Below, one piece after another: positions 18,576 through 55,965 of a stretch of 62,731 nt of DNA (positions are counted from its first letter, which is position 1; each line of letters opens with the position of its first letter). The notes under the pieces are model-generated. The model worked only from the letters and a program-made list of their open reading frames with translations, was not told the DNA's origin and did no database searches. Origin of the DNA: Deltaproteobacteria bacterium (lineage in GTDB: Bacteria > Myxococcota_A > UBA796 > JAFGLY01); contig JBFYZZ010000078.1 of the NCBI GenBank assembly GCA_041309225.1, positions 1-62,731 on the forward strand, given 5' to 3'. Position numbers and translations under genes: made by a program.

Positions 18576-18860
18576 ATGAAGTACTGGCGTACTCCCCTGG
18601 ACCTGGACCACATCACGGTCCCCCGCGGCGAGGTCCACATCCTCGTCGAACGCTGCAAGGGGTGCGGCTTTTGCGTCGAGTACTGCCCCAAGGGGGTGCT
18701 GGCCATCTCCGAGGCGTTCAACCACAAGGGCTACCACCCCCCCGAGGTGGTGAAGCCCGAGGAGTGCGTGAACTGCAACCTGTGCGAGATGATCTGCCCG
18801 GACTTCGCGATCTACTCGGTGGCCCTCCCCCCGGCGCCGGCCACCGTCACGTTCCGGTAG
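18576..18860 (+). CDS. korD: 2-oxoacid:ferredoxin oxidoreductase delta subunit (2x[4Fe-4S] ferredoxin-like)
   Basis: ORF 18576..18860. Motifs CKGCGFCVEYCP and CVNCNLCEMICP. Sits directly upstream of the alpha, beta and gamma subunits (D-A-B-G/C order, as in oorDABC-type operons). Confidence 0.85.
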   Translation: MKYWRTPLDLDHITVPRGEVHILVERCKGCGFCVEYCPKGVLAISEAFNHKGYHPPEVVKPEECVNCNLCEMICPDFAIYSVALPPAPATVTFR

Positions 18861-18901
18861 CTGGGCCGCGCCGCCACGGCCGGCCCCGAGGAGGATGGTT
18901 C

Positions 18902-20059
18902 GTGTCCGCTGATCCTGCAGGAGTGCTCACCGGCGTCCACTACCTGGACGGCGACTTCGCCTGCGGCGAGGGCGCGATGGCTGCGGGGTGCCGGTTCGTG
19001 GCCGGCTACCCGATCACCCCGTCCACCGAGGTCGTGGAGCGCATCGGACGCCGATTCCCCATGATGGGGGGCGTCTTCATCCAGATGGAGGACGAGCTCG
19101 CCAGCATGGCGGCCATCGTCGGGGCGTCCTGGACCGGCACCAAGACGATGACGGTGACCAGCGGGCCGGGGTTCAGCCTGATGATGGAGAACATCGGCCT
19201 CGCCGCCATGATGGAGGCGCCCTGCGTCGTCGTGAACGTGCAGCGGGGCGGGCCCTCCACGGGCCTGCCCACCATGGTCGGCCAGGCCGACATGATGCAG
19301 GCACGCTGGGGATCCCACGGCGACTACCCCATCATCGCGCTCTGCCCGCAGTCCCCGCAGGAGGCCTTCGACCTCACGGTCGAAGCCTTCAACCTCGCTG
19401 AGACCTGGCGCACCCCGGTGCTCCTGCTCATGGACGAGTGCGTGGGCCACATGACCGAGAAGGTGGTCATCCCGCCCGCCGAGCGGATCCACGTGGTCAA
19501 GCGCAAGCTGACCGACAAAAAGCCCGAGGAGTACCGTCCCTTCGACGTGGGCGACGGCTGGGTGCCCGAGTTCGCGCGGGCGGGCGACGGGTACCGGTTC
19601 CACGTCACGGGCCTCACCCACGACGAGCGCGGGTACCCGAGCATGACCGTCGAGTGCCAGGCCACGGCGATCCGGCGGCTCGTGGACAAGATCCGGCGCA
19701 ATGCGGACCGCATCGTCCGGTTCGAGGAGGATGGCGTCGACGACGCCGACGTGGTCGTGGTCGCCTACGGCATCACAGCCCGCGTCGCGCGGATGGCGAT
19801 CGAGATGGCGCGGGCGCAGGGGGCCAGGGTCGGCTTCCTGCGCCTCGTCGTGGCGTGGCCGTTCCCGGAGGCGCGGATCCGGGAGCTGGCCGGCCGGGTC
19901 CGTGCCTTCGTGGTGCCCGAGATCAACCTCGGGCAGATGGCCCTCGAGGTCGAACGCTGCGCGGCCGGACAGGCGCGCACGTCGTGCGTCTCCCACGCCG
20001 GCGGCGGCGTGCACGACCCCGAGGAGATCTGCCGCGCGATCCTGGAGGCCGTCCGATGA
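18902..20059 (+). CDS. korA: 2-oxoacid:ferredoxin oxidoreductase alpha subunit
   Basis: Part of ORF 18662..20059. GTG 18902 follows GAGGAGGA. Motifs GEGAMAAGCRFVAGYPITPSTE and TSGPGFSLMMENIG. Confidence 0.85.
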   Translation: MSADPAGVLTGVHYLDGDFACGEGAMAAGCRFVAGYPITPSTEVVERIGRRFPMMGGVFIQMEDELASMAAIVGASWTGTKTMTVTSGPGFSLMMENIGLAAMMEAPCVVVNVQRGGPSTGLPTMVGQADMMQARWGSHGDYPIIALCPQSPQEAFDLTVEAFNLAETWRTPVLLLMDECVGHMTEKVVIPPAERIHVVKRKLTDKKPEEYRPFDVGDGWVPEFARAGDGYRFHVTGLTHDERGYPSMTVECQATAIRRLVDKIRRNADRIVRFEEDGVDDADVVVVAYGITARVARMAIEMARAQGARVGFLRLVVAWPFPEARIRELAGRVRAFVVPEINLGQMALEVERCAAGQARTSCVSHAGGGVHDPEEICRAILEAVR

Positions 20060-20946
20060 GCCCCGCTTCCGAGCAGCGTCCCGGCGAGGAGCAGCATCCC
20101 ATCACGCCCTACATCCGCATGGACCGGATGCCCCACATCTGGTGCCCCACCTGCGGCATCGGGACCGTCGTGAAGTGCTACGTCCAGGCGCTCCTCGAGG
20201 AGGAGATCGACCTCGACAAGGTGGCGGTCGTGTCGGGCATCGGCTGCACCGGCCGCGTGGCCGGCTACGTCAAGCTCGACTCCTTCCACTCCACGCACGG
20301 CCGCGCCATCCCCTTCGCCACGGGCCTCAAGCTCTGCCGGCCCGAGCTGCTGGTCACCGTGTTCTCGGGGGACGGCGACCTGGTCGGCATCGGCGGCAAC
20401 CACTTCATCCACGCCGCCCGCCGCAACCAGGATCTCCTCGTCATCCTGGTCAACAACTTCATCTATGGCATGACCGGCGGGCAGAACGCACCCACCACCC
20501 CGCTTGGAGCGAAGTCGTCGACCATGTCGTTCGGCAACTTCGAGCGTCCTTTCAGTCTGCCGCACCTCGCGGCGTCGTGCGGGGCCACCTACGTCGCCCG
20601 GTGGACGTCCCTCCACATCCGGCGCCTCACCCGGTCCTTCCGGGAGGCCAGCCGGCGCAGGGGCTTCCGGTTCATCGAGGTCATCGCGCCCTGCTCCACC
20701 CTGTACGCTCGCCTGAACAAGCTGGGCACGGGCTACGACCTCATGAAGTTCTACCACGACTACGCCGAGATTCGGAACGGGGCGGACACCCGGGAGCTGG
20801 ACATCGAGTTCCAGTCCCGGATCGTGTGCGGCAAGTTCGTCGACGTGGAGAAGCCCACCTACCAGCAGGCCATGGACGCCCACTACCGCAAGGCCCTGGG
20901 GTCCAGCTACGTGCCCATGAAGCCGGAGGGAGGGTGGCTGCCATGA
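20056..20946 (+). CDS. korB: 2-oxoacid:ferredoxin oxidoreductase beta subunit (TPP/[4Fe-4S])
   Basis: Part of ORF 19438..20946. ATGA overlap with the korA stop. Motifs WCPTCGIG, GIGCTGR and GDGDLVGIGGNHFIHAARRN (TPP-binding GDG). Confidence 0.85.
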   Translation: MSPASEQRPGEEQHPITPYIRMDRMPHIWCPTCGIGTVVKCYVQALLEEEIDLDKVAVVSGIGCTGRVAGYVKLDSFHSTHGRAIPFATGLKLCRPELLVTVFSGDGDLVGIGGNHFIHAARRNQDLLVILVNNFIYGMTGGQNAPTTPLGAKSSTMSFGNFERPFSLPHLAASCGATYVARWTSLHIRRLTRSFREASRRRGFRFIEVIAPCSTLYARLNKLGTGYDLMKFYHDYAEIRNGADTRELDIEFQSRIVCGKFVDVEKPTYQQAMDAHYRKALGSSYVPMKPEGGWLP

Positions 20947-21530
20947 ACCGGACCGAGATCCGCATCACGGGGTTCGGCGGCCAGGGCGTCGTCCTGTGCG
21001 GCTACGTCATCGGCCGTGCATGCGCCATCCAGGCGGGCCAGCACGCCACCATGATCCAGTCCTTCGGGCCCGAGGCCCGGGGCTCGTCGTGCAGCGCCAC
21101 CCTGGTCGTCTCCGACCAGCCCGTGCTGTACCCCTACATCCGCCACCCGGACATCTTCGTCGTGATGTCCAACGACGGCTACGAGAAGTACGCCTCCGAG
21201 CTCAAGGACGACGCGGTGATCGTGTACGAGCGGGATCTGGTCCACCCGGAGCCCCGGCCCGGCCAGCGGGCCTACGGCGTGCCCTCCACCCGCATCGCCG
21301 AGAAGCTGGGGCGGGCCCTCATCCAGAACATCGTGATGCTCGGCTTCTTCGGTGCCGTGACGCGCATCGTGCCCCGGGACGAGATGCGGGAGGCGGTCCG
21401 GAATTCGGTGCCCGCCGGCACCGAGGCGCTCAACCTGAAGGCGTTCGACGCCGGATGGGCCTGGTTCGACGAGCAATACGGCGCCGACGGGGCTCCAGCC
21501 GGTGCGGCGCGTTCCGCGACCACGGGGTGA
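20943..21530 (+). CDS. korG: 2-oxoacid:ferredoxin oxidoreductase gamma subunit
   Basis: Part of ORF 19701..21530. ATGA overlap with korB. N-terminus IRITGFGGQGVVLCG is typical of gamma subunits. Confidence 0.85.
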   Translation: MNRTEIRITGFGGQGVVLCGYVIGRACAIQAGQHATMIQSFGPEARGSSCSATLVVSDQPVLYPYIRHPDIFVVMSNDGYEKYASELKDDAVIVYERDLVHPEPRPGQRAYGVPSTRIAEKLGRALIQNIVMLGFFGAVTRIVPRDEMREAVRNSVPAGTEALNLKAFDAGWAWFDEQYGADGAPAGAARSATTG

Positions 21531-21533
21531 GCC

Positions 21534-24500
21534 ATGACCACCGACGCTGCCCCTCCCCGCCGCGCCCTGGTGATCGGAGGCGGGATCGCGGGGATCCAGG
21601 CCGCCCTCGACCTCGCGAGCGCCCGGGTGCGCGTCACCCTGGTGGAGACGTCGCCGTCGCTGGGCGGGCGGATGGCCCAGCTGGACAAGACCTTCCCCAC
21701 CATGGACTGTGCGATATGAATCCTCGGCCCTAAGGCCATGGATGCCGGTCGGCATCCCCTCATCGACGTCGTCACCCACGCAGAGGTCGTCGCCTGCAGC
21801 GGCGAGCCGGGGGCGTTCCGGGTCCGGGTCCGGAAGCGGCCGCGCTACGTCCGGGAGGATCGCTGCGTGGCCTGCGGGCTCTGCGTGGTTGCGTGCCCGC
21901 AGGTGGGCGGCAACGAGTTCGACATGGGGATCAAGGCCCGGAAGGCCATCTACCGGCCGTTCCCGCAGTCCGTGCCCGCGACCTACGTGGTGGACCCGGA
22001 CGCCTGCCTCAACTTCCTCAACTTCCTGACCCCTCGCCAGCGCGATCGCCTCGAGCGCATCCGCTCGATCAAGGCCCGGAAGGACCCGGCGTACCGCACC
22101 GACTTCCTGGCCTGCGGCCACTGCTTGGCGGCCTGCGAGGTCCAGGCCATCGACTTCGACATGGCCCCCGAGGAGTTCGACCTCGACGTGGGCGCGATCC
22201 TCGTCGCCACGGGGTTCCAGGAGTTCGACGCCCGGGCGCTGCGCACCTACGGCTACGGCCGCCTGCCCAACGTGGTGACCAGCCTCGAGCTCGAGCGGAT
22301 GCTCAACGCCTCGGGCGTCACCCAGGGCCACGTGATCCGGCCCAGCGACGCCCGCACGCCCCGCCGGATGGTCTTCGTGCAGTGCGTGGGCGCCCGGGGC
22401 GAGGGGGGTCGTCCCTACTGCAGCCGGTTCTGCTGCATGAACGCCGTGAAGGACTCCCTTCTCGTGCGCCAGCACGATCCGGGGGTGGAGGAGGTCACCA
22501 TCCTCTACACGGACATGCGCGCCTTCGGGAAGGGGTTCGACGACTTCGTCGAGCGCGCCCGCCGCGAGCGGAGCGCCCGCTTCATCCGGGGCCGGCCGGC
22601 CACGATCCGCCACGACCCCACCGACGACACGCTCGAGGTCTTCGTGGAGGACACCCTCGCCCACGAGCCGATGCGGATCCGGGCCGATCTCGTGGTCCTC
22701 TCGGTGGCGGCGGCCCCCAACGAGGGCGCCGTGGAGCTGGCTCGGATGCTCGGGATCGAGACCGACGTCTACGGCTTCATCGCCCGCCTGGACCCCGCCG
22801 TCTCGGCGGTGGAGACCCGCCGCGAGGGGGTGTTCGTGGCCGGCAGCGCGGTCGGGCCGCAGGTCATCCCCGACTGCGTGGCCCAGGCCTCCGCCGCCGC
22901 CGCACGGGCCGCACGCTTCCTGGCCGCCGAGCGGGTCGAGGAGGACCGGACGCCCCCGCCTCCCCTGGATCTCTCGGGCCCTCCCCGCATCGGCGTCCTG
23001 GTCTGCCACTGCGGGGTCAACATCGCGGGCGTCCTCGACGTGAAGGCCCTGGCCGCCCATGCGGCTGCCCAGCCCGGGGTCGTGGTGGCGGTGGACGACG
23101 CCTTCGCCTGCTCCTCCACCGGCCAGGAGACGCTCGCAGCGCTCGTGGCCGAGCACCGGCTCAACCGCGTGGTGGTGGCGGCGTGCACGCCCCGCACCCA
23201 CGAGCCCGTCTTCCGGGAGACCTGCGCCCGGCTGGGCTTCAACCCCTACCTCCTGGAGATGGTCAACATCCGCGACCAGTGCTCCTGGGTCCACGCCGGC
23301 CACCCGGCCGAGGCCCAGGAGAAGGCCCGGGCGCTGCTCCGGATGGGCATCGCCCGCGCGCGCCACCTCGAGCCCCTCGAGCAGGGGCGGGCGCCGGTCA
23401 CGCGCCATGCGCTCGTCGTCGGCGGGGGCATCGCGGGCATCCAGGCGGCCACCGACCTCGCGGAGCAGGGCTTCCCGGTCACGCTCGTGGAAGCGGCCTC
23501 CCGGCTGGGCGGCCGACTCGCCGCCCCCCACCTGTGGCGGCTCTACCCCAACGACCGGGCGGCCTCCGAGGTCCTCGCCCGCAAGGTGGAGCGCCTCCAC
23601 GCGAGCGGGGCCCGGGTGCTCACCGGTACCGAAGTCACGGGGATCACGGGCTTCGTCGGCTCGTTCCAGGCCACGCTCCGGGGCGCGGAGGACGAGATCC
23701 TGCCCGTGGGGGTGGTCATCCTGGCCTTCGGGGCCGACCTCGCCGACCCCGGTGGAGCGTACGGCCACGGCCGGCTCCCCAACGTGATCACCAGCGAGGA
23801 CCTCGAGCGCGCGTTCCACGAGGGGGGGCCGCGCATCGACGGGGCCCTGCCCCGGAGCGCGGCCTTCGTGCTCTGCGTCGGCTCCCGGGAGGAGCACGGC
23901 TTCACCGGGTGCTCCCGGTACTGCTGTCCCACAGCCGTGAAGCAGGCCCTCGCGCTGGCCCGCCAGGGCGTGGACTGCACGGTGTTCTACCGAGACATCC
24001 GCACGGTCTCGTGGGGCACCGAAGAGATGTACCGCGAGGCCCGCGGCGCCGGCGTGCTGTTCGTGCGCATCCCGCCCGGCGAGCGTCCGCGGGTGCTGGG
24101 CGAAACCCGCGCCGAGCGGGTCCGCTGCCGCGACGACCTCCTGGGCCGGGAGATCGAGGTGCCGGCGGACCTCGTGGTGTTGAGCGTGGGGATGCGACCG
24201 CGCCAACCCGAGACCGCCCACTTCCACGACATCCTCAAGGTGAGCGTGGGCCTCGACGGGTTCTTCCTGGAGCGCCACCCGGAGCTGGCCCCGGTGGAGA
24301 CCGCCGTCGAGGGCGTCTTCCTGGCGGGCACCGTGCAGGGGCCGAAGGACCTCGTGGACACCGTGGCCCAGGCATCCGCCGCCGCGGCCAAGGCCTCCGT
24401 GCTGCTCGCCCACGACCAGATCCGGCTCGATCCGGCGGTGGCCGTGGTGGATCCCCTGAAGTGCCGCGGCTGCGGCCAGTGCGTCGAGATCTGCAGGTTC

Positions 24501-24683
24501 CAGGCCCCCTCCCTCAAGGAGATCGAGCCGGGCGCCTGGATCGCGGAGGTGAACGCCTCCCTGTGCAAGGGCTGCGGCACCTGCGCCTCGTGGTGCCCCT
24601 CCGGCGCCATCTCGGCCCGGCACTTCACGGAGCGCCAGATCGTCTCCATGGTGGACGCCCTCTTCGCGGAGGGATCGCGATGA
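21534..24683 (+). CDS. hdrA: HdrA-like flavoprotein, tandem two-unit form, selenocysteine-containing (UGA 21717..21719 recoded)
   Basis: ORFs 21534..21719 and 21738..24683 are in the same frame, separated only by TGA plus 6 sense codons. Read-through gives [22 protein letters not shown], colinear with FPTLDCAACILTPKMV in the Cys paralogues at 42824 and 48393. Two FAD Rossmann motifs ([32 protein letters not shown]). Internal HdrA N-domain Cys set ([10 protein letters not shown] / FACSSTG / VAACTP). Ferredoxin-type Cys clusters, including C-terminal [11 protein letters not shown] and [12 protein letters not shown]. Confidence 0.8.
21740..21757 (+). promoter_or_regulatory. SECIS-like hairpin (7-bp stem GGAUGCC/GGCAUCC, GGUC loop) downstream of UGA 21717
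   Basis: Perfect inverted repeat ggatgcc-ggtc-ggcatcc read directly. The loop starts 30 nt after the U of UGA. The identical element follows the second in-frame UGA at 26895. Confidence 0.5.
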
Positions 24684-25111
24684 CCGCCCCCGCCGCCACC
24701 TGGAACCCGCGCATCGTCGTCTTCGCCTGCAACTGGTGCTCCTACGCCGGTGCCGACACCGCGGGGGTCTCGCGCGTCCAGCACCAGCCCCACTTCCGGA
24801 TCATCCGGGTGATGTGCTCGGGCCGCATCCAGCCCTCCTTCGTGCTCCGTGCCTTCGAGAAGGGCGCCGACGGCGTCCTGGTGTCCGGGTGCCACATCGG
24901 CGACTGCCACTACCTGTTCGGGAACGAACGGGCGGTGGAGCAGTTCGAGAAGACCCGCGCCGTGACGCGCGTGCTCGGGCTGGAGGACGACCGGCTGCGC
25001 CTGGAGTGGATCTCCGCCGCCGAGGGCGCCCGGTTCGCCCAGGTCATCGACGAGTTCACCGACCGCGTGCGGGCCCTGGGCCCCAGCCCCCTGGCCGCGG
25101 AGGCTCCATGA
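24680..25111 (+). CDS. mvhD: MvhD-like [2Fe-2S] electron-transfer subunit
   Basis: Part of ORF 21893..25111. ATGA overlap with the hdrA stop. Motifs [29 protein letters not shown] and LEWISAAEG. Confidence 0.85.
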
Positions 25112-26280
25112 GCAGCGCCTGCCGCGAGCGCCTCTCTGCCATCGCCGCCCGGACCCGCGCCTGGGCCTGCTACGACTGCGGCAAGTGCACGGCCACCTGC
25201 CCCGTCACCCGGATCGGCGGGTCGCTCTCGCCCCGCCGCACGGTGCTCTCCACCCACCTCCCGCACGCCGACCCGGCCGTCCACTCCGCCGACCTCGCCT
25301 CCTGCCTCACGTGCCGCGCCTGCGACCTCCGGTGCCCGGTCCAGGTGGACTACACGGGCCTCGTCCGGGAGCTGCGCACCCTCGCCCACGAGGAGGGCGC
25401 CGAGCCCGAGTGCCCCCACGGCGGGGCCCTCCAGTCCCTCATGCGGATGATGGCGCGGGGCACCCAGCGCCAGCAGCGCCTCGGCTGGATCGGGAGCGAC
25501 CTCCGCACGGATCCGGCCCGGGGCCACGTGTTCCTCTGGACGGGCTGCACCGTCTACTACGACGCCTTCTTCCCCGAGTATGGCATGCGCACGCTCGACG
25601 GCACCCGCGCCGCCGTCCGCCTGCTCAACGCGCTCGGGGAGGTGCCGGTGGTCTCCCCCGAGGAGGCGTGCTGCGGCCACGACCTCCTCTGGAACGGCGA
25701 TCGGCCGTCGTTCGAGGCGCTCGCCCGCCGCAACGCCGCCCTCCTGCGCGCGAGCGGCGCGAGCGTGGTGGTCGCGCCCTGTGCCGAGTGCGCCCGCACC
25801 CTCCGCCTCGACTATGCGCCGTTCCTGGGCGCGGGCGCTCCGCGGATCCTGCACCTCTCCGAGTACCTCCTCGAGCGGATCGCCGAGCTCCCCCTCACCC
25901 GGCCGGAGGCCGTGCGGGTCACCTACCAGGATCCCTGCCGCCTGGGCCGCCACCTCGGCGTGGTGGACGCCCCGCGTCGCCTGCTCGAAGCCGTGCCGGG
26001 CCTGGAGCGGGTGGAGATGGCCCACCACGGCCGCAACGCCACCTGCTGCGCCGGCGGCACCTGGTCCGCGTGCGACCGGTACGCCAAGAAGCTCCAGGTC
26101 GAACGCCTCAAGGAAGCCCGGGCCACCGGCGCGACGATTCTCGTGACCGCCTGCCCCAAGTGCCAGATCCACTTCCGCTGCGCCCAGAAGGACCCCAACC
26201 TGGGCCAGGACATCGCCATCGAGATGCGGGACGTCGCCCAGGTGCTGGCCGACGCCCTCCGACCCCTGGAGGCTCCATGA
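25108..26280 (+). CDS. HdrC-HdrB fusion (HdrD-like) Fe-S/CCG-domain subunit
   Basis: Part of ORF 24736..26280, with ATGA overlap. N-terminal [12 protein letters not shown] and [12 protein letters not shown] (2x[4Fe-4S]). Cys-rich CCG-type segments follow ([32 protein letters not shown]). Confidence 0.8.
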
Positions 26281-28739
26281 CCGATCCCGTCCAGAATCCT
26301 CCGAGCGACGAGGAGGTGCGCGTCGGCGTCTTCGTCTGCGACTGCGGCCTCAACATCGCGGGCGCCGTGGACTGCGGCGCCGTGGCGGAGTTCGCCGCCA
26401 CGCTGCCGGACGTGACCACGGTGGTCCGCAACAAGTACACCTGCGCGGATCCGGGCCAGAACGAGATCCGGAACGCGATCCGCCAGCACCACCTCAACCG
26501 GGTGGTGGTGGCTTCCTGCACCCCGCGCCAGCACGAGCCGACGTTCCGGCAGTGCGTGCTCGAGGCCGGCCTCAATCCCTACCTCATGGAGATGGCCAAC
26601 CTCCGCGAGCACTGCGCCTGGGTCCACCCCAACGACCGCGAGGCCGCCACGGCCAAGGCCATGGATCTCGTGGCCAGCGCCGTGGCCAAGGCCCGCTTCC
26701 TCCAGCCCCAGGAGGAGATGGTGGTCCCCGTCACGCGCCGGGCGCTCGTGATCGGCGGCGGGGTCGCCGGGATCGAGGCGGCGCTCGAGCTCGCGGATCA
26801 GGGGCACAAGGTCACGCTGGTCGAGAAGCAGCCCTCGATCGGCGGGATCATGGCCCAGCTCGACAAGACCTACCCCACCATGGACTGTAGCATATGAATC
26901 CTCGGGCCCAAGGCCATGGATGCCGGTCGGCATCCCAACATCGAGCTCCTGACCTTCTCCGAGGTCGACGACGTCTCCGGCTACGTGGGCAACTTCACGG
27001 TCCGGATCCGGAAGAAGGCCCGCTACGTGGACCCCACGGCCTGCAACGCCTGCGGGGAGTGCGCCAAGGTCTGCCCGCAGGTCCGCCCCGACGAGTACCA
27101 GATGGGGCTCTCGGCCCGCAAGGCCATCTACATCCCCTTCCCCCAGGCGGTGCCCTGCGCCTACGTCCTCGACATGGAGAGCTGTCTGGGCAACATCCCC
27201 ATCGCCTGCGGCAAGTGCGCCGACGCCTGTGAGAAGAAGGCCATCGACTACGACGATCGCGACGAGATCGTCACCCGCGAGATCGGCTCGATCATCGTGG
27301 CGGTCGGGGCCGACGTCTACGACCCCACCCAGGACGACGAGTACGGCTACACCCGGTTCCGGAACGTGATCACCTCCATGGAGTTCGAGCGCCTGATCTG
27401 CGCGGGCGGCCCCACCGGCGGGCACTTCGTCCGGCCGAGTGACCGGCGGCGGCCGACGCGGATCGGGTTCGTCCAGTGCGTGGGCTCCCGGAATCCGAGG
27501 CTGAACCGTCCCTGGTGCTCCAACATCTGCTGCATGAACACGGTCAAGGACACCCTGCTCCTCGCCGACCACTACCCCGACACCGAAAACGTGGTGTTCT
27601 ACCAGGATATTCGTTCGTTCGGCAAGGGCTTCGAGGACATGTTCCAGCGCTCCAAGCAGGCGGGCACCCGGTACGTGCGCGGCCTGCCGGGGGAGATCGT
27701 GGAGGACCCGGCCACGGGCAACCTCCACGTCACCGTGGAGAACACCACCGCCGGCCGGATCGAGCGGTACGAACTGGACATGGTCGTGCTCTCGGTGGGC
27801 GTGGAGCCTCCCAGGGACCTCGCGAGGATCTCGGGCCTGCTCACGCTCTCCAAGACGTCCGACGGCTTCTTCATGGAGTCGCATCCCAAGCTCAAGCCGG
27901 TCGACGCGCCCACCCGTGGCGTCTACTTCGCGGGCTTCTGCGAGTCCCCCAAGGACATCAAGGACTCGGTCTGCCAGGCCGGGGCCGCGGCGTCCCGGGC
28001 CGGAGCCCTGCTCAACGCGGGCCGCATCCGGATCGAGGCCATCACCTCCCGGATCGATCCCGCAGCCTGCACGAAGTGCGGCCTGTGCGCCCAGGTCTGC
28101 CCCTACGGGGCGATCCGGTGGCAGAAGGGCGAGGTGGCCACGGTGGTGGAGGCGGCCTGCGCCGGGTGCGGCGCCTGTGGCGCCACCTGCCGATCCGGCG
28201 CCATCACGATGCGGCACTTCACCGACGACCAGCTCCTGGCCCAGGTCCGGGCGGTGCTCGCGCATCGGCCCGAGGACAAGGTGTTCGTGTTCGCCTGCAA
28301 CTGGTGCTCCTACGCGGGCGGGGACATGGCGGGCATCTCCCGCATGGCCTACCCCGCCTCCAACCGCGTGGTGCGGACCATGTGCTCCGCCCGTGTCTCG
28401 GAGGAGATGGTGGTCGAGGCCTTCCGGTGCGGTGCACCCGTGGTGCTCGTCTCGGGCTGTCACTACGCGGACTGCCACTACATCAGCGCCAACCGCCAGA
28501 CCGTGAAGCGGGTGGATCGGCTGTGGGACCGACTCGAGCGGCTGGGCATCCGGCCCGAGCGGCTGCAGCTCGAGTGGATCAGCGCGGCGGAGGGCCAGAA
28601 GTTCGCCGCCGTCATGCGGCGCCTCGAGGATCTCAGGCGCACCGTCACCGCCGAGGAGATCGCCCTCACGCGCGCGGCGCTCGCCGCGCCGGCGAAGCCC
28701 GCGCCGAAGCCCGCCCGGGCCACCGCGCCCCAGGAGTGA
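26277..28739 (+). CDS. hdrA: HdrA-MvhD fusion flavoprotein, selenocysteine-containing (UGA 26895..26897 recoded)
   Basis: The tail of ORF 25185..26897 and ORF 26916..28739 share one frame across the TGA, giving [22 protein letters not shown]. Full HdrA N-domain ([10 protein letters not shown] / YTCADPG / VASCTP). FAD motif [16 protein letters not shown]. Fused C-terminal MvhD module ([38 protein letters not shown]). Confidence 0.8.
26918..26935 (+). promoter_or_regulatory. SECIS-like hairpin (GGAUGCC-GGUC-GGCAUCC) downstream of UGA 26895
   Basis: Same 18-nt element and same spacing as at 21740..21757. Confidence 0.5.
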
Positions 28740-41086: not shown

Positions 41087-41413
41087 GGGGGTCCTCGGGC
41101 GATCGACGGGCGCGTATCACGGGCCGGCGCGCCGTGGGCCCCCCCGATCCGGCCGATGAAGCGGTGCTCAGCGACTTTGGCCCGTGCAGGCGTATCTTCC
41201 CCGCACACACTCGCGCGCGCGTGGGGGGATGCTATGTACCGACCCCGCGAGGGCAGCCGTCCGGCGGACCACGCGGACCCCGTCCTGCCAGCGAGGTACC
41301 CCCGCACCACCCCCTCCGACGATGCGCGACCCGGCCCCGTCGGGCCGCGTGTCCGGCGGGTACAGGAGGACGCCTTGGAGCCCCTTCTCCCGGCGATTCG
41401 CATCGAGATCGGA

Positions 41414-41956
41414 ATGAAACCGGACTTCCTCGAGGAGATCTTCGAGGTGCCCGGGGGCGAGAAGATCAAGGAGTGCATCCAGTGCGGGACCTGCAGCGGG
41501 TCCTGCCCGGCGAGCCCGTTCATGGATCACGCGCCCCGGAGGATCATCGCGATGATCCGCGCGGGCATGCGGGACGACGTGCTCTCCTCGAACACGATCT
41601 GGATGTGCGCTTCCTGCTACCTCTGCCAGGTCCGCTGTCCAGCCGGGATCAAGATCACGGACATCATGTACGGCCTGAAGCGGATCGCGGTCCGCGAGGG
41701 CAAGGGCCAGCCCTCCTCGTCCGAGATGGCGAGGATCTTCGTGGACAACATCAACCGCTTCGGCCGGAACGACGAGCGGCTGCTGATCTTCCGGTACTAC
41801 CTCAAGACCGCCCCGACGATGTTCCTGTCCTACGCCCCCCTCGGGATCGCGATGATCACCCACGGCCTCATGTCGTTCGGGCTGCCCGAGCGGATCCGCG
41901 GCATCGACCAGCTGAAGGCGATCATCCGAAAGGTCGAGGAGGAAGGTGTCGTATGA
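41414..41956 (+). CDS. hdrC: Heterodisulfide reductase subunit C-like
   Basis: Part of ORF 40307..41956. Motifs CIQCGTCSGSCP and CASCYLCQVRCP. 180 aa. Confidence 0.85.
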   Translation: MKPDFLEEIFEVPGGEKIKECIQCGTCSGSCPASPFMDHAPRRIIAMIRAGMRDDVLSSNTIWMCASCYLCQVRCPAGIKITDIMYGLKRIAVREGKGQPSSSEMARIFVDNINRFGRNDERLLIFRYYLKTAPTMFLSYAPLGIAMITHGLMSFGLPERIRGIDQLKAIIRKVEEEGVV

Positions 41957-42819
41957 GAACGTACGCGTACTTCCCCGGCTGCTCGCTGAAAGCCACGGCG
42001 ACCCCCTACGAGACCTCGCTCCTCGACGTGGCCGGAGCGCTCGACGTCGAGTTCCGGGAGCTCGACGACTGGAACTGCTGCGGCGCCACCGCCTACTTCT
42101 CGATCCGCGAGACGCTCTCCCACGCCATCTCGGCCCGCAACCTCGCGATCGCCGAGAAGGGGGGGCTCGACCTGGTGGCGCCCTGCAGCGCCTGCTACCT
42201 CGGCCTCTCCAAGACGAACCACTACCTGCAGGAGTTCCCGGAGCTCAAGCGCCGGGTGGACGGGGCCCTCGCCGCGGGAGGGCTCGCCTACGGCGGCTCC
42301 GTTCGCGTCCGCCACGCCCTCGAGGTCTTCGTCCAGGACGTGGGCATCGACGCCATCGAGGATCGCGTCAGGAAGCCGCTCGATGACCTCAAGGTCGCGG
42401 GCTACGCGGGCTGCCAGATGGTGCGGCCCTACGGCTTCGACGACGCCGAGGTCCCGGTGGTGCTCGACCGGCTCACCGCCGCGCTCGGGGGGACCCCCGT
42501 CGACTTCCCGCTCGCCTCCCGCTGCTGCGGGGGCGCCCAGGTCATGACCAACCAGCCCGTCGCCCTGGCCATGTGCCGCGAGCTCCTCGCCTGCGCCGAG
42601 GGTCGCAAGGCCGACGTGATCGTCACCACCTGCCCCCTGTGCCACATGAACCTCGACCTCTTCCAGGGCAAGGTGAACGCCGCCTTCGGCACGTCGTTCC
42701 ACATCCCGGTCGTCTTCTTCACTCAGCTGATGGCCCTGGCCTTCGGGCTCCAGCGCACCGGCATCGACAAGAACATCGTCCCGGCGAGCCCCACGCTCGT
42801 TGGCCTGATGGCGGGGTAG
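41953..42819 (+). CDS. hdrB: Heterodisulfide reductase subunit B-like (two CCG domains)
   Basis: Part of ORF 41080..42819. ATGA overlap with hdrC. Motifs YFPGCSL, WNCCGA, APCSACY, RCCGGA and TTCPLCHMN. Confidence 0.85.
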   Translation: MRTYAYFPGCSLKATATPYETSLLDVAGALDVEFRELDDWNCCGATAYFSIRETLSHAISARNLAIAEKGGLDLVAPCSACYLGLSKTNHYLQEFPELKRRVDGALAAGGLAYGGSVRVRHALEVFVQDVGIDAIEDRVRKPLDDLKVAGYAGCQMVRPYGFDDAEVPVVLDRLTAALGGTPVDFPLASRCCGGAQVMTNQPVALAMCRELLACAEGRKADVIVTTCPLCHMNLDLFQGKVNAAFGTSFHIPVVFFTQLMALAFGLQRTGIDKNIVPASPTLVGLMAG

Positions 42820-42823
42820 TCCC

Positions 42824-44818
42824 ATGCCCAGGATCGGCGTCTTCGTCTGCCACTGCGGTTCCAACATCGGCTCGGTGGTCCACGTCCCCGAGGTGGTCCA
42901 GTTCGCCTCCGGGCTCCCGGGCGTCGTCCACGCGGCGGAGCACAAGTACATGTGCTCGGATCCCGGCCAGGAGATGATCCGCCAGGCGATCCGCGAGCAC
43001 GGGCTCGAGCGGGTGGTCGTGGCGTCCTGCTCCCCGCTCATGCACGAGGCCACGTTCCGCAAGACCTGCGAGGAAGCCGGCCTGAACGGGTTCCTCTTCC
43101 AGATGGCCAACATCCGGGAGCAGGTCTCCTGGGTCACCGAGGACAAGGCCAGGGCCACCAAGAAGGCCATGGCCGTGGTCCAGGCGGCCGTCCACCGGGT
43201 CGTCGGACACGTCCCGCTCCAGGTCGGCACGGTACCGGTCACCCCGGCCACCCTCGTCATCGGGGGCGGAGTCGCGGGCATCGAGGCGGCCCTCCAGGTG
43301 GCCTCGTCCGGCACCCGGGTGCACCTGGTCGAGCGCGAGCCGTCCATCGGCGGCCACATGGCCAGGTTCGACAAGACCTTCCCCACCCTCGACTGTGCCG
43401 CCTGCATCCTCACCCCCAAGATGGTGCAGGCCAACACGCACCCGATGATCACGGTCCACGCCTGGTCCGAGGTCGTGGAGGTCTCGGGCTTCGTGGGCAG
43501 CTTCAAGGTCCGGATCCACCACAAGGCCACCTACGTGGATCACCAGAAGTGCACGGGGTGTGGGGCCTGCCTCCAGAAGTGCCCCCAGCGCAAGATCCCC
43601 TCCGAGTTCGACTACGGCATGATGAACCGGCGGGCCATCTACATCCCCTTCGCCCAGGCCGTCCCCAACAAGCCCATCATCGATCGGGAGCACTGCCAGT
43701 GGTTCCAGGCCGGCAAGTGCCGGATCTGCGAGAAGGTCTGCGAGGCGAAGGCCATCGACTACGACCAGGATCCGGCCGGCTGGACGGAGGAGGTCGAGGT
43801 CGGCAACATCATCGTCGCCAGCGGCATGAAGGTCATGCAGCCGACCGACATGAAGCACCTGGGCTACGGCCGCCTCCCCGACGTCTACACGGGCATCGAG
43901 TTCGAGCGGCTCTGCCACGCCTCGGGGCCGACCGAGGGCCACATCGTCTGCAAGACCGGCGGCGTGGTCAAGGCCGGGGGCCGGCCTCCCAAGGCCATCG
44001 CCCTGGTCCACTGCATCGGGAGCCGCGATCAGCAGCACCACGCCTACTGCTCCCGGGTGTGCTGCATGTACGCGCTCAAGTACGCGCACCTCGTCAAGGA
44101 GCACGTCCCGGGCTGCGAGGTCTACGACTTCTACATCGACATGCGCTGCTTCGGGAAGGGCTACGAGGAGTTCTACAACCGGCTCCTGCGGGAGGACGTG
44201 CGCTTCGTCCGCGGGAAGGTGGCCGAGGTCACCGACGCGGCCCTCTACCCGGGCGAGGACGGCCGCATGGTGGTCCGCGTGGAGGACACGCTCGTCGGCG
44301 CCGTCCGTCGCATCCCCGTGGACATGGTCGTGCTCTGCTCGGCGCTCGAGCCCGCCGAGGGCGCCAAGGCCCTCGCCCAGACCCTCCACATGGGCTGCTC
44401 CTCGGACGGCTTCTACCTCGAGCGCCACCCCAAGCTGGCCCCGGTCTCCACCGCGTCCGCGGGCATCTTCGTGGCCGGCTGCTGCCAGGGCCCGAAGGAC
44501 ATCCCCGACTCGGTCGCCCAGGGCGCCGCCGCGGCGGCCCAGGCCCTGGCCATGATCATGAAGGGCCAGGTGGAGGTCGAGCCCACCACGGCCCACGTGA
44601 TCGACGACCTCTGCTCGGGCTGCCAGATCTGCATCCCGCTGTGCCCCTACGAGGCCATCCACCGCGACGAGGCCAGGCGCAAGGCCTACGTGGAGCCCGC
44701 GCTCTGCAAGGGTTGCGGCACCTGCGTGGGCGCCTGCCCCTCCGGCGCGCTCCAGCAGTGGGGCTTCGACGACACCCAGATCCTCGCCGAGCTCGAGGGC
44801 ATCCTCGCGGCCCGATAG
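42824..44818 (+). CDS. hdrA: Heterodisulfide reductase subunit A (Cys form, complete domain set)
   Basis: ORF 42824..44818. Motifs VCHCGSNIG / YMCSDPG / [22 protein letters not shown] and FPTLDCAACILTPKMV. Ferredoxin motifs CTGCGACLQKCP, CRICEKVC, CSGCQICIPLCP and CKGCGTCVGACP. Confidence 0.9.
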   Translation: MPRIGVFVCHCGSNIGSVVHVPEVVQFASGLPGVVHAAEHKYMCSDPGQEMIRQAIREHGLERVVVASCSPLMHEATFRKTCEEAGLNGFLFQMANIREQVSWVTEDKARATKKAMAVVQAAVHRVVGHVPLQVGTVPVTPATLVIGGGVAGIEAALQVASSGTRVHLVEREPSIGGHMARFDKTFPTLDCAACILTPKMVQANTHPMITVHAWSEVVEVSGFVGSFKVRIHHKATYVDHQKCTGCGACLQKCPQRKIPSEFDYGMMNRRAIYIPFAQAVPNKPIIDREHCQWFQAGKCRICEKVCEAKAIDYDQDPAGWTEEVEVGNIIVASGMKVMQPTDMKHLGYGRLPDVYTGIEFERLCHASGPTEGHIVCKTGGVVKAGGRPPKAIALVHCIGSRDQQHHAYCSRVCCMYALKYAHLVKEHVPGCEVYDFYIDMRCFGKGYEEFYNRLLREDVRFVRGKVAEVTDAALYPGEDGRMVVRVEDTLVGAVRRIPVDMVVLCSALEPAEGAKALAQTLHMGCSSDGFYLERHPKLAPVSTASAGIFVAGCCQGPKDIPDSVAQGAAAAAQALAMIMKGQVEVEPTTAHVIDDLCSGCQICIPLCPYEAIHRDEARRKAYVEPALCKGCGTCVGACPSGALQQWGFDDTQILAELEGILAAR

Positions 44819-44826
44819 GAGCGACC

Positions 44827-45279
44827 ATGTCCGACTTCGAACCCCGCATCGTGGCGTTCCTGTGCAGCTGGTGCTCCTACACGGGGGCCGACCTCGCGGG
44901 CACCAGCCGCAAGAAGTACAGGAGCAACATCATCCCCATCCGGGTGATGTGTTCGGGGCGCGTCGATCCCGAGTGGATCCTCAAGGCCTTCCGCGACGGC
45001 GCCGACGGCGTCCTCGTGTGCGGCTGCCACCCCGGCGACTGCCACTACATCAACGGCAACCACAAGACGCTCGGGCGGTACCCGGTCGTGCGGCGGATGC
45101 TCGCCCAGTTCGGCATCCACCCCGACCGCTACCGCCTGGAGTGGGTGTCCGCCGCCGAGGGTGACCGCTACGCGAAGGTGGTGGACGCCATGATCGACAC
45201 CGTCCGGGCGCTGGGGCCGCTCCGCTGGAAGGACCGGCTCGCCGCCGCCACCGACACGCTCGCGGACGCGAGGAGCTGA
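44827..45279 (+). CDS. mvhD: MvhD-like [2Fe-2S] subunit
   Basis: Part of ORF 42952..45279. Motifs LCSWCSYTGADLAG, VMCSGR, VCGCHPGDCHY and LEWVSAAEG. Confidence 0.85.
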   Translation: MSDFEPRIVAFLCSWCSYTGADLAGTSRKKYRSNIIPIRVMCSGRVDPEWILKAFRDGADGVLVCGCHPGDCHYINGNHKTLGRYPVVRRMLAQFGIHPDRYRLEWVSAAEGDRYAKVVDAMIDTVRALGPLRWKDRLAAATDTLADARS

Positions 45280-45281
45280 CC

Positions 45282-46244
45282 ATGGCCGAGAAGCTGCGCC
45301 TGGGCCTCTACTGGGCCGCCTCCTGCGGTGGCTGCGAGATCGCGGTGCTGGAGATCGGGGACCGGATCCTGGATCTCATCCAGGTGGCCGACATCGTGTT
45401 CTGGCCGTGCGTGATGGACTTCAAGTACGACGACGTGCGCGCCATGCCCGACGGCCACATCGACGTGGTGCTGTTCAACGGCGCGATCCGGAACTCCGAG
45501 AACGAATCCATCGCCCGCCTCCTCCGGCAGAAGTGCAAGGTGCTGGTGGCCTTCGGCTCCTGTGCGGTCGAGGGCGGCATCCCCGCGCTGGCCAACCTGT
45601 ACGCGCTCCAGTCCCTCATGGCCCGGGCCTTCACCGAGTCCGAGTCCACCGTCAATCCCGCGGGCACGGTCCCCGCCCCGGGCCACCACGTGCCCGAGGG
45701 GGAGATCGAGCTCCCGGTGATCTACCGGACGGTCCGGCGCCTTCAGGACGTCGTGCCGGTCGACTACTTCATGCCCGGCTGCCCGCCCACGGAGAAGCAG
45801 ATCTGGGCCGTGCTCCAGGCCATCGTGGCCGGCGTCCTCCCGCCCGTGGGATCCCACGTCGGTTGTGGCGATCGCAGCGTGTGCGACGAGTGCAAGCGCG
45901 AGAAGCGGCAGGTCCGGATCGAGCGCTTCCACCGTCCCCACGAGATCGTGCCCGAGGAGGGCTGGTGCCTCCTCGAGCAGGGCATCGTCTGCATGGGCAG
46001 CGCGACCCGGAGCGGTTGCGAGGCCCGCTGCCTCGATGCCAACCAGCCCTGCCGGGGCTGCTATGGCCCGGCGGGCCGAAGCATGGACCAGGGGGCGGCC
46101 ACGCTGTCCGCCGTGGGCTCGATGATCGCTGCCGACTCCATCGAGAAGGCGGAGCAGATCCTCCGGGACTTCGTGGATCCGGCCGGGACGGTCTACCGCT
46201 TCGGCATGTCGAACTCCCTCCTCGTCCGCAGGCTGGACGAGTAG
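45282..46244 (+). CDS. mvhG: [NiFe] hydrogenase small subunit (Mvh/group-3c-like)
   Basis: ORF 45282..46244. Motifs LYWAASCGGCEIAVLE, AFGSCAVEGGIP and GCPP. C-terminal Cys clusters (CDECKREK, CLLEQGIVCMGSATRSGCEARC, CRGCYGP). Confidence 0.85.
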   Translation: MAEKLRLGLYWAASCGGCEIAVLEIGDRILDLIQVADIVFWPCVMDFKYDDVRAMPDGHIDVVLFNGAIRNSENESIARLLRQKCKVLVAFGSCAVEGGIPALANLYALQSLMARAFTESESTVNPAGTVPAPGHHVPEGEIELPVIYRTVRRLQDVVPVDYFMPGCPPTEKQIWAVLQAIVAGVLPPVGSHVGCGDRSVCDECKREKRQVRIERFHRPHEIVPEEGWCLLEQGIVCMGSATRSGCEARCLDANQPCRGCYGPAGRSMDQGAATLSAVGSMIAADSIEKAEQILRDFVDPAGTVYRFGMSNSLLVRRLDE

Positions 46245-46266
46245 TCCCGACCGAAAGGCCACTTCG

Positions 46267-47733: not shown

Positions 47734-47736
47734 CCC

Positions 47737-48231
47737 GTGCCGGGCGCGGTGATCCTGGGGGTGGGCAATCCCGTGCTCTCGGACGACGCCGTGGGCCTTG
47801 CGGTGGCCGGTCGCGTCCGGGAGATCCTGGGCGACGCGCCCGACGTCGCCGTGCGCGAGTCCGAGCGGGGCGGGCTCGACCTCGTCGAGCTCCTCGAGGG
47901 CGCCGACGTGGCGGTGGTGGTGGACGCCCTCCTCGATCCCGGACACCCGCCCGGGACCGTGCTGCCCCTGGACCTCGAGGAGGTCCGCACCACCACCCAC
48001 CTCCACGGCGCCCACGGCGTGGATCTCCCCACCGCCGTGTCCGTGGGGCGCCGGTTGGGGGTGGCCATGCCCGCCTCGGTCCGGATTGTGGGCGTGGTCG
48101 TGGAGGACGCCCTCACGCTGGGCGAGGGCCTCACGCCCGCCGTGGCCGCTGCGGTGGAGCCCGCGGCCCGCCTCGCCGTGGCGCTGGCCCGCCCCGGCGG
48201 GACCGGATCGACGCGCGCGCCGCGAAGCTGA
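47737..48231 (+). CDS. Hydrogenase maturation endopeptidase (HycI/HybD/FrhD family)
   Basis: ORF 47737..48231 (GTG start). Contains ILGVGNPVLSDDAVG. Sits directly after the large subunit. Confidence 0.8.
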   Translation: MPGAVILGVGNPVLSDDAVGLAVAGRVREILGDAPDVAVRESERGGLDLVELLEGADVAVVVDALLDPGHPPGTVLPLDLEEVRTTTHLHGAHGVDLPTAVSVGRRLGVAMPASVRIVGVVVEDALTLGEGLTPAVAAAVEPAARLAVALARPGGTGSTRAPRS

Positions 48232-48273
48232 TCCCGGACACGCTCCGAACCGGGAGGCGTGCCAAAAGGGAAT

Positions 48274-48318
48274 ACACTGTGTAAGCACCTTGACACAGTG
48301 TGTGCCACTTCTACATGG
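48274..48318 (+). promoter_or_regulatory. Candidate sigma-70-type promoter (TTGACA 48290..48295, TACATG 48312..48317) overlapping a 9-bp inverted repeat ACACTGTGT-N10-ACACAGTGT
   Basis: Lies in a locally AT-richer intergenic island between the protease stop (48231) and the next hdrA-like start (48393). Consensus -35 hexamer with a 16-nt spacer to a weak -10. Palindromic boxes at 48274..48282 and 48293..48301. Confidence 0.35.
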
Positions 48319-48392
48319 TCGGGCTCCCTGCACTCCGTATACTCGTCTGTCCGGACGTGGCCCGACGGGGCTGTCCGGACACCGGAGGCCCC

Positions 48393-50198
48393 GTGAGAAA
48401 AGCCGTCTTCTTCTGCCAGGTCGGCGACGAGACCCCGCTGAACGTGGACTCGGTCGCGAAGTACGCTTCCAACCTCCCGGGTGTGGAGCACGTGGAGGTG
48501 CTCGGCATCCGTCCGTCCCTGGACCCCACGCGGATCGCCGAGCGGATCCGGACCGTCCGGCTGGACCGGCTCGTGATCGCGGGCGACCAGCCCGGCTTCT
48601 TCAAGCCGGCCTTCACCCGCGCCATGGACCTCGCCAGCTGCTCGCCCCTGGAGGTCTTCCTCGCGCCCTTCGCGGCGTGGGGCGCCCCCGCCGAGGACGC
48701 CACCGAGCGGGCCAAGGCCATCGTGGCGTGCGCGTGCCAGGGCGTGCCCTTCACCCTGGCCGCCGTCCCGGCGTCCACGCCCGTCCACCCCGCCACCCTC
48801 GTCATCGGGGGCGGCGTGGCGGGGATCCAGGCGGCGCTCGAGATCGCCGACGCCGGCAAGCAGGTGCACCTCGTCGAGCGCACCGGCACGCTGGGCGGTC
48901 ACATGGCGATGTTCGACAAGACCTTCCCGACGCTCGACTGCGCGGCCTGCATCCTCACCCCCAAGATGGTGGCGGTGGGCCAGCACCCGATGATCAACCT
49001 CATGTCCTGGTCCGACGTGGAGGAGGTCTCGGGGACCCCCGGCGCCTACAAGGTCCGCATCCTACGGAAGGCCCGGAGGGTGGACGTCTCGGCCTGCGTG
49101 GCCTGCGGGATCTGCGCCGAGGTCTGCCCCGTGACCGTGCCGAGCGAGTTCGACGCCGGCATCTCCACGCGGAAGGCCGTGTACGTCCCCTTCCCCCAGG
49201 CGGTCCCGAACGCCTACCTGGTGGATCCGGCCTCCTGCACCTGGGTCCTGAGCGGGGGCCAGAAGTGTGGCGCCTGTGCGCGCAAGTGCCCCAAGGACTG
49301 CATCGACCTGAGCGAGAAGGACCGCGTAGAGGAGGTGGAGGTGGGGAGCATCATCCTGGCCACGGGCTACGAGGTCTTCGACGCGAAGCGGATCGAACGG
49401 TACGGCTACGGCGTCCTGCCCAACGTGCTCACGGCCCTCGAGTTCGAGCGGCTCACCAACGCGTCCGGGCCGACCGGCGGCCGCATCGTCACGCGCACGA
49501 AGCGGTACAACAAGCGCACCAAGCGGGACGAGTGGGTGTTCCAGGCCGACGGGCCCAGCCCGCGGAGCGTGGCCATCATCCACTGCGTCGGATCGCGGGA
49601 CAGCGCCTACAACGCATACTGCTCTCGCGTCTGCTGCATGTACTCCCTCAAGTTCGCCCACCTGGTGCGGGAGAAGCTGCCCGAGGCCGCGTGCTACGAG
49701 TTCTACATCGACATGCGGGCCTTCGGGAAGGGCTACGAGGAGTTCGCCGAGCGCATCAAGGCGGAGGGGACCCACGTGGTCCGGGGTCGCACCGCCTCGG
49801 TCCAGATGGTGGGGGAGGAGATGGTGGTCCGCGGTGAGGACATCCTCGAGGACCGCCTGCTCGAGTTCCCCGTGGACATGGTGATCCTCGCCGTGGGGCT
49901 CGTGCCGGCCTCGGGCACGGACGAGCTGGCGCGTACGCTCGAGGTGCAGCGCGATCCCGACGGCTGGTTCGCCGAATTCGACTACGACGGCAATCCCACC
50001 GAGACCCAGCGCGGGGGGGTGTACGTGGCCGGGATGTGCCAGGGCCCGAAGGACATCCCCGACACCGTGGCCCAGGCCTCGGCCGCCGCGGCCGGCGTCC
50101 TGAGGGCCATCTCCTCCGGGCGGGGCACCGGGTCCCTGTCCAGCCTCTCGCTGTCGGTCATCGAGGCGAGGGCCAGGACCCTCGCGCGGTCCACCTGA
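48393..50198 (+). CDS. HdrA/QmoA-like flavoprotein (keeps DCAAC motif, degenerate N-terminal Cys domain)
   Basis: Part of ORF 48300..50198, GTG 48393. [16 protein letters not shown] and FPTLDCAACILTPKMV present. The N-domain has lost 3 of its 4 Cys (FFCQVGDE / VLGIRPS / VIAGDQP). Ferredoxin motifs CVACGICAEVCP and CGACARKCP. Confidence 0.8.
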   Translation: MRKAVFFCQVGDETPLNVDSVAKYASNLPGVEHVEVLGIRPSLDPTRIAERIRTVRLDRLVIAGDQPGFFKPAFTRAMDLASCSPLEVFLAPFAAWGAPAEDATERAKAIVACACQGVPFTLAAVPASTPVHPATLVIGGGVAGIQAALEIADAGKQVHLVERTGTLGGHMAMFDKTFPTLDCAACILTPKMVAVGQHPMINLMSWSDVEEVSGTPGAYKVRILRKARRVDVSACVACGICAEVCPVTVPSEFDAGISTRKAVYVPFPQAVPNAYLVDPASCTWVLSGGQKCGACARKCPKDCIDLSEKDRVEEVEVGSIILATGYEVFDAKRIERYGYGVLPNVLTALEFERLTNASGPTGGRIVTRTKRYNKRTKRDEWVFQADGPSPRSVAIIHCVGSRDSAYNAYCSRVCCMYSLKFAHLVREKLPEAACYEFYIDMRAFGKGYEEFAERIKAEGTHVVRGRTASVQMVGEEMVVRGEDILEDRLLEFPVDMVILAVGLVPASGTDELARTLEVQRDPDGWFAEFDYDGNPTETQRGGVYVAGMCQGPKDIPDTVAQASAAAAGVLRAISSGRGTGSLSSLSLSVIEARARTLARST

Positions 50199-50199
50199 G

Positions 50200-51357: not shown

Positions 51358-51368
51358 CAGGAGCTCCC

Positions 51369-53524: not shown

Positions 53525-53527
53525 GGC

Positions 53528-55959: not shown

Positions 55960-55965
55960 GACGCC

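Follow-up and report, generated by a model that had tools for sequence, protein, structure and literature searches.

An in-frame UGA that very probably encodes selenocysteine in a fused double HdrA gene, followed by a conserved hairpin

We analysed a 62.7 kb stretch of DNA with 72% G+C (contig JBFYZZ010000078.1, labelled Deltaproteobacteria bacterium; the whole stretch is called the window, and coordinates refer to it), concentrating on a gene for the heterodisulfide reductase subunit HdrA that is interrupted by an in-frame TGA. A 61-codon open reading frame (ORF; 21534..21719) and a 981-codon ORF (21738..24683) lie in the same frame on the forward strand with the TGA at 21717–21719 between them, and translation through this codon yields a 1049-residue fused double HdrA whose residue 62 would be selenocysteine (Sec62). 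A previous sequence-only reading of the window had held that the 61-residue ORF ends at this TGA and restarts in frame at 21738, that the UGA falls on the second Cys of a DCxxC pair, and that a perfect hairpin lies at 21740–21757, 23 nt after the U. The ORFs and their translation, together with an alignment described below, bear out each of these points, and all of its coordinates were correct. The features that carry the argument are as follows.

21534..24683, forward strand: complete read-through gene for the fused double HdrA (translation, PDB match, and G+C content at third codon positions, GC3, on both sides of the TGA)

21714..21716, forward strand: ATA (Ile) codon directly 5′ of the UGA (codon counts)

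21717..21719, forward strand: in-frame UGA, residue 62, equivalent to Cys197 of the HdrA structure 5ODC (alignment, and conservation in related loci)

21740..21757, forward strand: putative apical hairpin of a selenocysteine insertion sequence (SECIS), GGAUGCC-GGUC-GGCAUCC, with a 7-bp stem and a GGUC tetraloop (folding and conservation)

22980..23381, forward strand: N-terminal-type [4Fe-4S] domain of the second HdrA module, residues 483–616 (VCHCG...), which aligns to residues 3–136 of 5ODC HdrA

Both ORF pieces are coding, since GC3 is 0.88–0.96 on either side of the TGA. The homology to HdrA is evident from a FAD-binding thioredoxin-reductase-like domain with the CX..CSRxCC cluster motif, and from Pfam FAD and Fer4 domains. 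When the read-through protein was aligned with the two Cys-type HdrA paralogues of the window (42824..44818 and 48300..50198), the TGA occupied the column of the second Cys of their DCAAC motif. TGA is the usual stop codon in this DNA, terminating 23 of 32 window genes, and has therefore not been reassigned. When the window was scanned for in-frame TGAs flanked by coding signal on either side, just two proved to be inside a gene, at 21717 and at 26895; the other matches, at 28737, 30323 and 53522, were ordinary stops with the next gene following in the same frame. The TGA at 26895 belongs to a second HdrA-type gene, where it again stands at the DCxxC site within the same local peptide and is followed, at equal distance, by an identical 18-nt hairpin.

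The codon preceding each of these TGAs is unusual. Window genes contain 573 Ile codons, of which only four are ATA, and two of these (21714–21716 and 26892–26894) directly precede the two in-frame TGAs. Across 118 distinct family sequences, the set over which codon conservation was counted here and below, the codon at −1 is ATA in 87, compared with 17 and 15 at two other Ile codons. The Asp codon four positions 5′ of the TGA is GAC in 100 sequences and GAT in 18. The preference for ATA suggests selection on the 5′ context of a selenocysteine (Sec) codon, hypothetically through the A at −1 or through the P-site tRNA.

Comparison of the window with 78 related genome loci (approx. 1.4 Mb) revealed how the codon is conserved. 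The loci are labelled Planctomycetota/Phycisphaerae, Acidobacteriota (Thermoanaerobaculia, Holophagae, Ca. Sulfomarinibacter), Gemmatimonadota, Myxococcota, Zixibacteria, Ignavibacteria, Armatimonadota, Verrucomicrobia, Anaerolineales, Fermentibacteria and a ‘Deltaproteobacteria’ metagenome-assembled genome (MAG), the last being 88% identical and the nearest relative. Every one of the 63 closest loci, which span at least eight phyla, has TGA as the orthologous codon; the 15 most distant, below approximately 47% identity, have TGC or TGT. Counting every domain of the first-module type in the 78 loci and the window, this column holds 124 TGA and 19 Cys codons, while the second, degenerate FAD module has Glu, Asp or Lys at the DCxxC column. 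By the standard criterion, a selenoprotein is recognized by Sec and Cys alternating in one column. Coding conservation persists on both sides of the TGA across the loci, as seen in conserved flanking peptides. Most loci have a second TGA-bearing gene approximately 5.2 kb downstream and several hold a third copy.

The hairpin begins after a spacer of 20 nt from the UGA, placing its loop at nt +31 to +34, and has a calculated free energy of −11.5 kcal/mol in its 7-bp form. Perfect 7-bp hairpins with 4-nt loops occur 21 times on the forward strand of the window, and two of the 21 have a GGTC loop; both of these begin 20 nt past the only two in-gene, in-frame TGAs, where the expected number per site is 0.007. 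Codon choice within the hairpin is also atypical: GAT, GGT and CAT are minority choices in the window (18%, 8% and 15% of their families, respectively), and under window codon usage the five-codon hairpin string has a probability of 5e-4 given the peptide.

The part of the hairpin conserved in the family is a 6-bp stem (21741–21756) within the codons for M-D-A-G-R-H-P. Numbered from the TGA, codon +8 is GAT in 117 of the 118 family sequences (GAG in the other), +9 is GCC or GTC in 117, +10 is GGT in 116 and +12 is CAT in all 118. Third-position entropy is 0–0.14 bit at these four codons, compared with 1.0–1.95 bit in nearly all flanking codons. The Arg codon at +11 (CGG, CGA or AGG; 0.55 bit) covaries with codon +9: GCC is found with CGG (giving a C:G pair), and GTC with CGA (U:A) or with CGG or AGG (U:G), whereas the combination of GCC with CGA, which would give C:A, is never seen. 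Pairing was tested on a 55-sequence alignment, in which the corresponding columns (32:39) are CG in 35 sequences, UA in 12 and UG in eight, with none unpaired. Overall, pairing holds in 95.3% of cells, compared with 27–57% when the partner strand is slid, and the covariation score exceeded that of 500 out of 500 shuffles. The observed variants have stabilities of −8.8 to −9.6 kcal/mol, while the unobserved C:A variant would fall to −4.5 kcal/mol. RNAalifold returned a consensus for the 55 sequences of exactly this 6-bp helix with a GGUC loop and nothing further. The apical loop reads GGUC in 108 of the 118 sequences, GGUA in eight and GGGC in one. Cys-type homologues, including both in the window, have neither the conserved hairpin nucleotides nor any hairpin. 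This comparative evidence supports the view that the hairpin is under selection as RNA, far beyond chance.

Two other hairpins deserve mention. A smaller candidate within the spacer, GGCC-CUAA-GGCC at 21726–21737, was predicted from the single sequence but discarded, because changes at its third pair are not compensated, AAG-ATG-ATG variants lack the helix, and RNAalifold drops it. A Sec-type HdrA gene from the Chloroflexi (locus L075, 5428–5490, with the peptide DCSM-U-ILSPK) has a different hairpin, CUGGUCG-AGGU-CGACCGG, at a distance of 15 nt from the UGA. It may represent a SECIS that arose independently, or one that diverged, with GGU kept in the loop, and its AGGU loop agrees with the need for G and U established for the loop of E. 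coli fdhF (PMC8659212).

The sequence-only reading had concluded that the UGA is read as Sec, and the 124/19 distribution of Sec and Cys codons, the two-sided coding conservation and the conserved, compensated hairpin all support it. What we observe directly is the codon in its frame, the homology, the alternation of Sec and Cys codons at its column, a hairpin that is conserved and covaries, and a complementarity between the two HdrA modules described below. On this evidence we hold with high confidence that the UGA at 21717–21719 is the Sec codon of a single 1049-residue fused double HdrA, with SelB-dependent insertion directed by the intragenic hairpin. By analogy with established bacterial Sec decoding, the in-frame hairpin with its GGUC loop, 20 nt past the UGA, would act as a bacterial SECIS; SelB·GTP·Sec-tRNA(Sec) would bind the apical loop and deliver Sec to the ribosomal A site as the UGA arrives, outcompeting RF2. 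Selenium incorporation and SelB binding at this locus are thus predictions from that mechanism.

Were the UGA a true stop, the locus would instead hold a split gene, its 61-residue FAD-binding fragment being followed by re-initiation at the ATG at 21738 to give a 981-residue protein. Gene callers, including those behind NCBI records, annotate nearly all of the best 120 relatives in this way, and the ATG is indeed present 18 nt after the stop. However, the six codons from TGA to ATG (ILGPKA) are conserved in frame and match the ILxPK of Cys-type HdrA, the ATG is replaced by ATC/ATT/ATA or CTG in approximately 45% of the family (including most HdrA-MvhD genes), and the sole Shine-Dalgarno-like sequence, AAGG, is only 2 nt away from the ATG. 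Half a Rossmann fold of 61 residues, cut off from its DCxxC partner, is an implausible product, and conservation of the hairpin would be left without explanation. We therefore regard a split gene as very improbable. The fact that the window is a single metagenomic contig might raise the suspicion of a sequencing or assembly error, or of a recent nonsense mutation in a pseudogene, but the TGA is present in 124 gene copies from independent assemblies, twice in the window itself, and purifying selection operates on both sides of the codon; this explanation is effectively refuted.

Several observations do count against Sec insertion, and those concerning the machinery would favour a form of read-through that dispenses with it, with Cys or Trp inserted by a near-cognate or suppressor tRNA, or with a reassigned code. 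None of selA, selB, selD or tRNA-Sec turned up on this contig (that is, the whole window) or in 79 related loci, approx. 1.4 Mb. ARAGORN found no tRNA-Sec in the window or 78 related loci, and no tRNA of any kind on the window. Searches of the window and all related loci with tblastn, using E. coli SelA and SelD queries, gave no match for selA or selD, and Pfam scans of 47 window ORFs detected no sel genes, including selA, selB and selD. As for the hairpin, the 60-nt region folds only 1.3 standard deviations better than shuffled sequences (z = −1.3), and thermodynamics alone cannot carry the claim in DNA of such high G+C content. Covariation is seen at a single stem pair, the remaining pairs being invariant, which is compatible with the structure but no proof of pairing. 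Rfam searches, at the gathering threshold and in a permissive scan (E ≤ 10) of 21690–21800, matched no SECIS family and returned two chance matches with E = 1.8. Compared with E. coli fdhF, the helix lacks a bulged U (U17 in the fdhF 5′ arm) and the spacer is longer (20 nt instead of 11 nt); the bulged U and the 11-nt spacing are traits of E. coli fdhF that are not universal among bacterial SECIS elements (PMC9312934). Read-through of the non-Sec kind nevertheless has to contend with an unreassigned TGA, and with the occurrence of just two in-frame TGAs, both at the same Cys-equivalent site and both with the same G-U-loop hairpin, which is the signature of SelB-dependent insertion. Furthermore, there are reports of the complete Sec machinery in some Planctomycetes and of selenoproteins in Acidobacteria (PMC4807772, PMC1794560). 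We accordingly give read-through without Sec machinery only a very small chance, and selenocysteine at residue 62 is the reading adopted in what follows.

The two modules of the read-through protein differ in composition. Module 1 (approx. residues 1–470) consists of a FAD-binding thioredoxin-reductase-like domain with an inserted ferredoxin domain and lacks the N-terminal cluster domain. Module 2 (approx. residues 483–1049) has an N-terminal [4Fe-4S] domain, a second FAD domain without DCxxC, and a C-terminal 2×[4Fe-4S] ferredoxin domain. Alignment to the HdrA family, suggested by the sequence-only reading as a check, matched residues 8–471 of module 1 to HdrA 5ODC with E = 4e-165, and this ungapped alignment sets Sec62 on Cys197. 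In HdrA, Cys197 is donated by the thioredoxin-reductase domain of one protomer to the N-terminal [4Fe-4S] cluster of the other, as its fourth ligand, and HdrA genes that are fused or in tandem are reported to lose Cys197 and the N-terminal domain in a complementary fashion (PMC9012536). The window protein obeys this rule, with module 1 carrying Sec62 but no N-terminal domain, and module 2 the N-terminal domain but no DCxxC. Because the modules are complementary in the way that rule describes, the protein is most likely a single-chain pseudo-heterodimer with selenium ligating an inter-module [4Fe-4S] cluster. Judged by analogy with the solved structure, the cluster of residues 483–616 would be the partner of Sec62, and selenium at residue 62 its presumptive ligand. 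This ligand position, the second case at 26895 and a database-wide truncation of the family, described below, go beyond the earlier reading.

The same complementarity is seen in a tandem Cys-type pair elsewhere in the window. The gene at 48300–50198 has the DCAAC Cys, a degenerate N-terminal domain and no C-terminal ferredoxin, while that at 51369–53093 lacks DCxxC but retains a C-terminal ferredoxin and an N-terminal CxCG domain that is intact; their products are likely to form a heterodimer.

The genes around the fused HdrA form a compact cluster, with these additional features.

18662..21530, forward strand: 2-oxoacid:ferredoxin oxidoreductase alpha, beta and gamma genes (Pfam POR_N/PFOR_II, TPP_enzyme_C and POR)

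approx. 24680–25111, forward strand: MvhD (FlpD), Cys-only (Pfam)

approx. 25111–26280, forward strand: HdrD/GlpC-like Fe-S protein with 2×CCG, Cys-only (Pfam)

26277..28739, forward strand: second Sec-type gene, an HdrA-MvhD fusion with an N-terminal cluster domain (TGA 26895–26897, hairpin 26918–26935)

The order of the cluster is oxidoreductase alpha, beta and gamma, Sec-HdrA-HdrA′, MvhD, HdrD-like, Sec-HdrA-MvhD and a second HdrD-like gene. The MvhD and HdrD/GlpC-like genes (24680..26280) thus sit between the two Sec-HdrA genes, and the last oxidoreductase gene has its stop 3 nt ahead of the HdrA start. Synteny of the oxidoreductase and Hdr genes recurs in a distant Phycisphaerales chromosome, CP070744.1 (L079, 6644–9631). 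This operon position suggests a functional tie of 2-oxoacid oxidation, or of ferredoxin, to the Hdr/MvhD complex. Encoded beside the oxidoreductase, the Sec protein would be part of an electron-bifurcating complex of the Hdr/MvhD type, its partners being those predicted from the neighbouring genes. No further selenoprotein genes were found in the window by the in-frame TGA scan, the MvhD, GlpC-like and MvhA proteins being of Cys type.

A second cluster (41207–56514) is of Cys type throughout, encoding HdrC-like, HdrB-like, HdrA, MvhD, MvhG and MvhA proteins and a HycI protease, followed by HdrA, a Fer4 protein, an HdrA-like protein, MvhD, MvhG, MvhA and HycI. Both Mvh [NiFe] large subunits end in DPCFGC or DPCFSC, and are therefore not [NiFeSe] enzymes. 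Since the Cys-type HdrA genes of the window are just 42–44% identical to the Sec-type genes, they are not simple selenium-free back-ups of them.

We searched the databases with the read-through protein. The best 120 clusters have 69–74% identity at 92–94% query cover, and nearly all of them start with MDAGRHP, that is, at the Met after the TGA. An exact look-up of the 981-residue product of the window itself gave no record. From the shared start it follows that gene callers have broken the relatives at one shared site, as the earlier reading had anticipated for standard callers; the 61–70-residue FAD-binding N-termini are called as separate small ORFs in the relatives. The truncation of HdrA, in the window as in essentially every database relative, is an annotation error that recurs systematically across phyla. 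Three Sec-HdrA genes (L079, 9770–12958, 13090–17598 and 19354–21807) are present in the closed Phycisphaerales chromosome CP070744.1, and in its annotation each of them is divided into a large ORF and a fragment of 70 or 202 residues. One of these large ORFs, of 1425 residues, has an added Fer4_20/pyridine-nucleotide-oxidoreductase part. A further complete chromosome, CP070718.1, also has the orthologous cluster. Within the searchable library, we found no paper linking Sec-HdrA with this Planctomycetota/Acidobacteriota clade. By term counts, a paper on Ca. Sulfomarinibacter (PMC8528874) contains five mentions of heterodisulfide reductase and none of selenocysteine.

One consequence is that metabolic reconstructions from MAGs of Planctomycetota, Acidobacteriota, Gemmatimonadota and others carry a truncated HdrA and overlook a dependence on selenium. 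The main value of the present finding lies in the corrected annotation of a large clade, which adds a widespread and environmentally abundant group to the Sec-HdrA family, and in a well-supported SECIS variant, GAUGYC-GGUC-GRCAUC, located 20–21 nt past the UGA and sufficiently conserved to serve as a search model. The finding leaves the mechanism of Sec decoding and the known list of Sec-using families unchanged. A more far-reaching interpretation, which we put forward tentatively and consider rather unlikely, is that these oxidoreductase-linked Hdr/MvhD clusters constitute a cross-phylum clade, unrecognized as selenoprotein-encoding, in which Sec is an obligatory selenolate ligand of a cluster rather than a redox-active catalytic residue. 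On this view, in which each of the 63 closest genomes keeps Sec and its nearly invariant SECIS in two or three paralogues, selenium ligation would tune bifurcation in a way that Cys cannot, and the cluster would spread horizontally, together with its SECIS, between phyla having different SelB proteins.

HdrA proteins with a CxxU motif are established selenoproteins of Methanococcales/Methanopyrus, Deltaproteobacteria and Clostridia (PMC1794560, PMC13188914), in agreement with the view taken in the sequence-only reading that Sec-HdrA, known from Methanococcales and Deltaproteobacteria, is no new family. The family itself is long known; what is new is an unannotated clade member, and recoding as such would not surprise a specialist. 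Hdr operons with several selenoprotein genes, and hdrA-hdrA fusions, have been described in Deltaproteobacteria such as Syntrophobacter fumaroxidans (Zhang et al. 2006, PMC1794560). The window protein shares with known Sec-HdrA its family, the CxxU at the DCxxC site, MvhD/FrhD and GlpC/HdrD-like neighbours, the double-HdrA fusion and a bacterial-type SECIS inside the ORF. It differs in its setting. The MvhD, GlpC-like proteins and both MvhA subunits of the window are Cys-only, whereas several of these are selenoproteins in S. fumaroxidans, and the window cluster is linked to a 2-oxoacid:ferredoxin oxidoreductase, where the known one is linked to frhG-frhA. The clade also extends to Planctomycetota, Acidobacteriota, Gemmatimonadota and other phyla, in which its members are annotated as truncated proteins.

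Among solved structures, module 1 aligns with HdrA of Methanothermococcus thermolithotrophicus (HdrABC-MvhAGD, 5ODC), with Sec62 in the place of Cys197; that HdrA is a homodimer of single modules with Cys, whereas the window protein consists of two complementary fused modules. In this respect it resembles the fused HdrA of anaerobic methanotrophic (ANME) archaea and of Moorella, although the order of the modules is reversed with respect to ANME HdrA3/4 (PMC9012536). The hairpin, for its part, is like the E. coli fdhF SECIS in being a stem-loop inside the ORF, directly 3′ of the UGA, with G-U in the apical loop. The fdhF loop reads GGUC, and the SECIS of Moorella thermoacetica reads GCC-GGUC(U)-GGC. 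In fdhF, G23 and U24 are essential (PMC8659212). Unlike fdhF, the window element has no conserved lower stem, and its binding by SelB is putative. Taken together, these comparisons indicate a SECIS of ordinary bacterial type, yet one that is distinct from the E. coli prototype.

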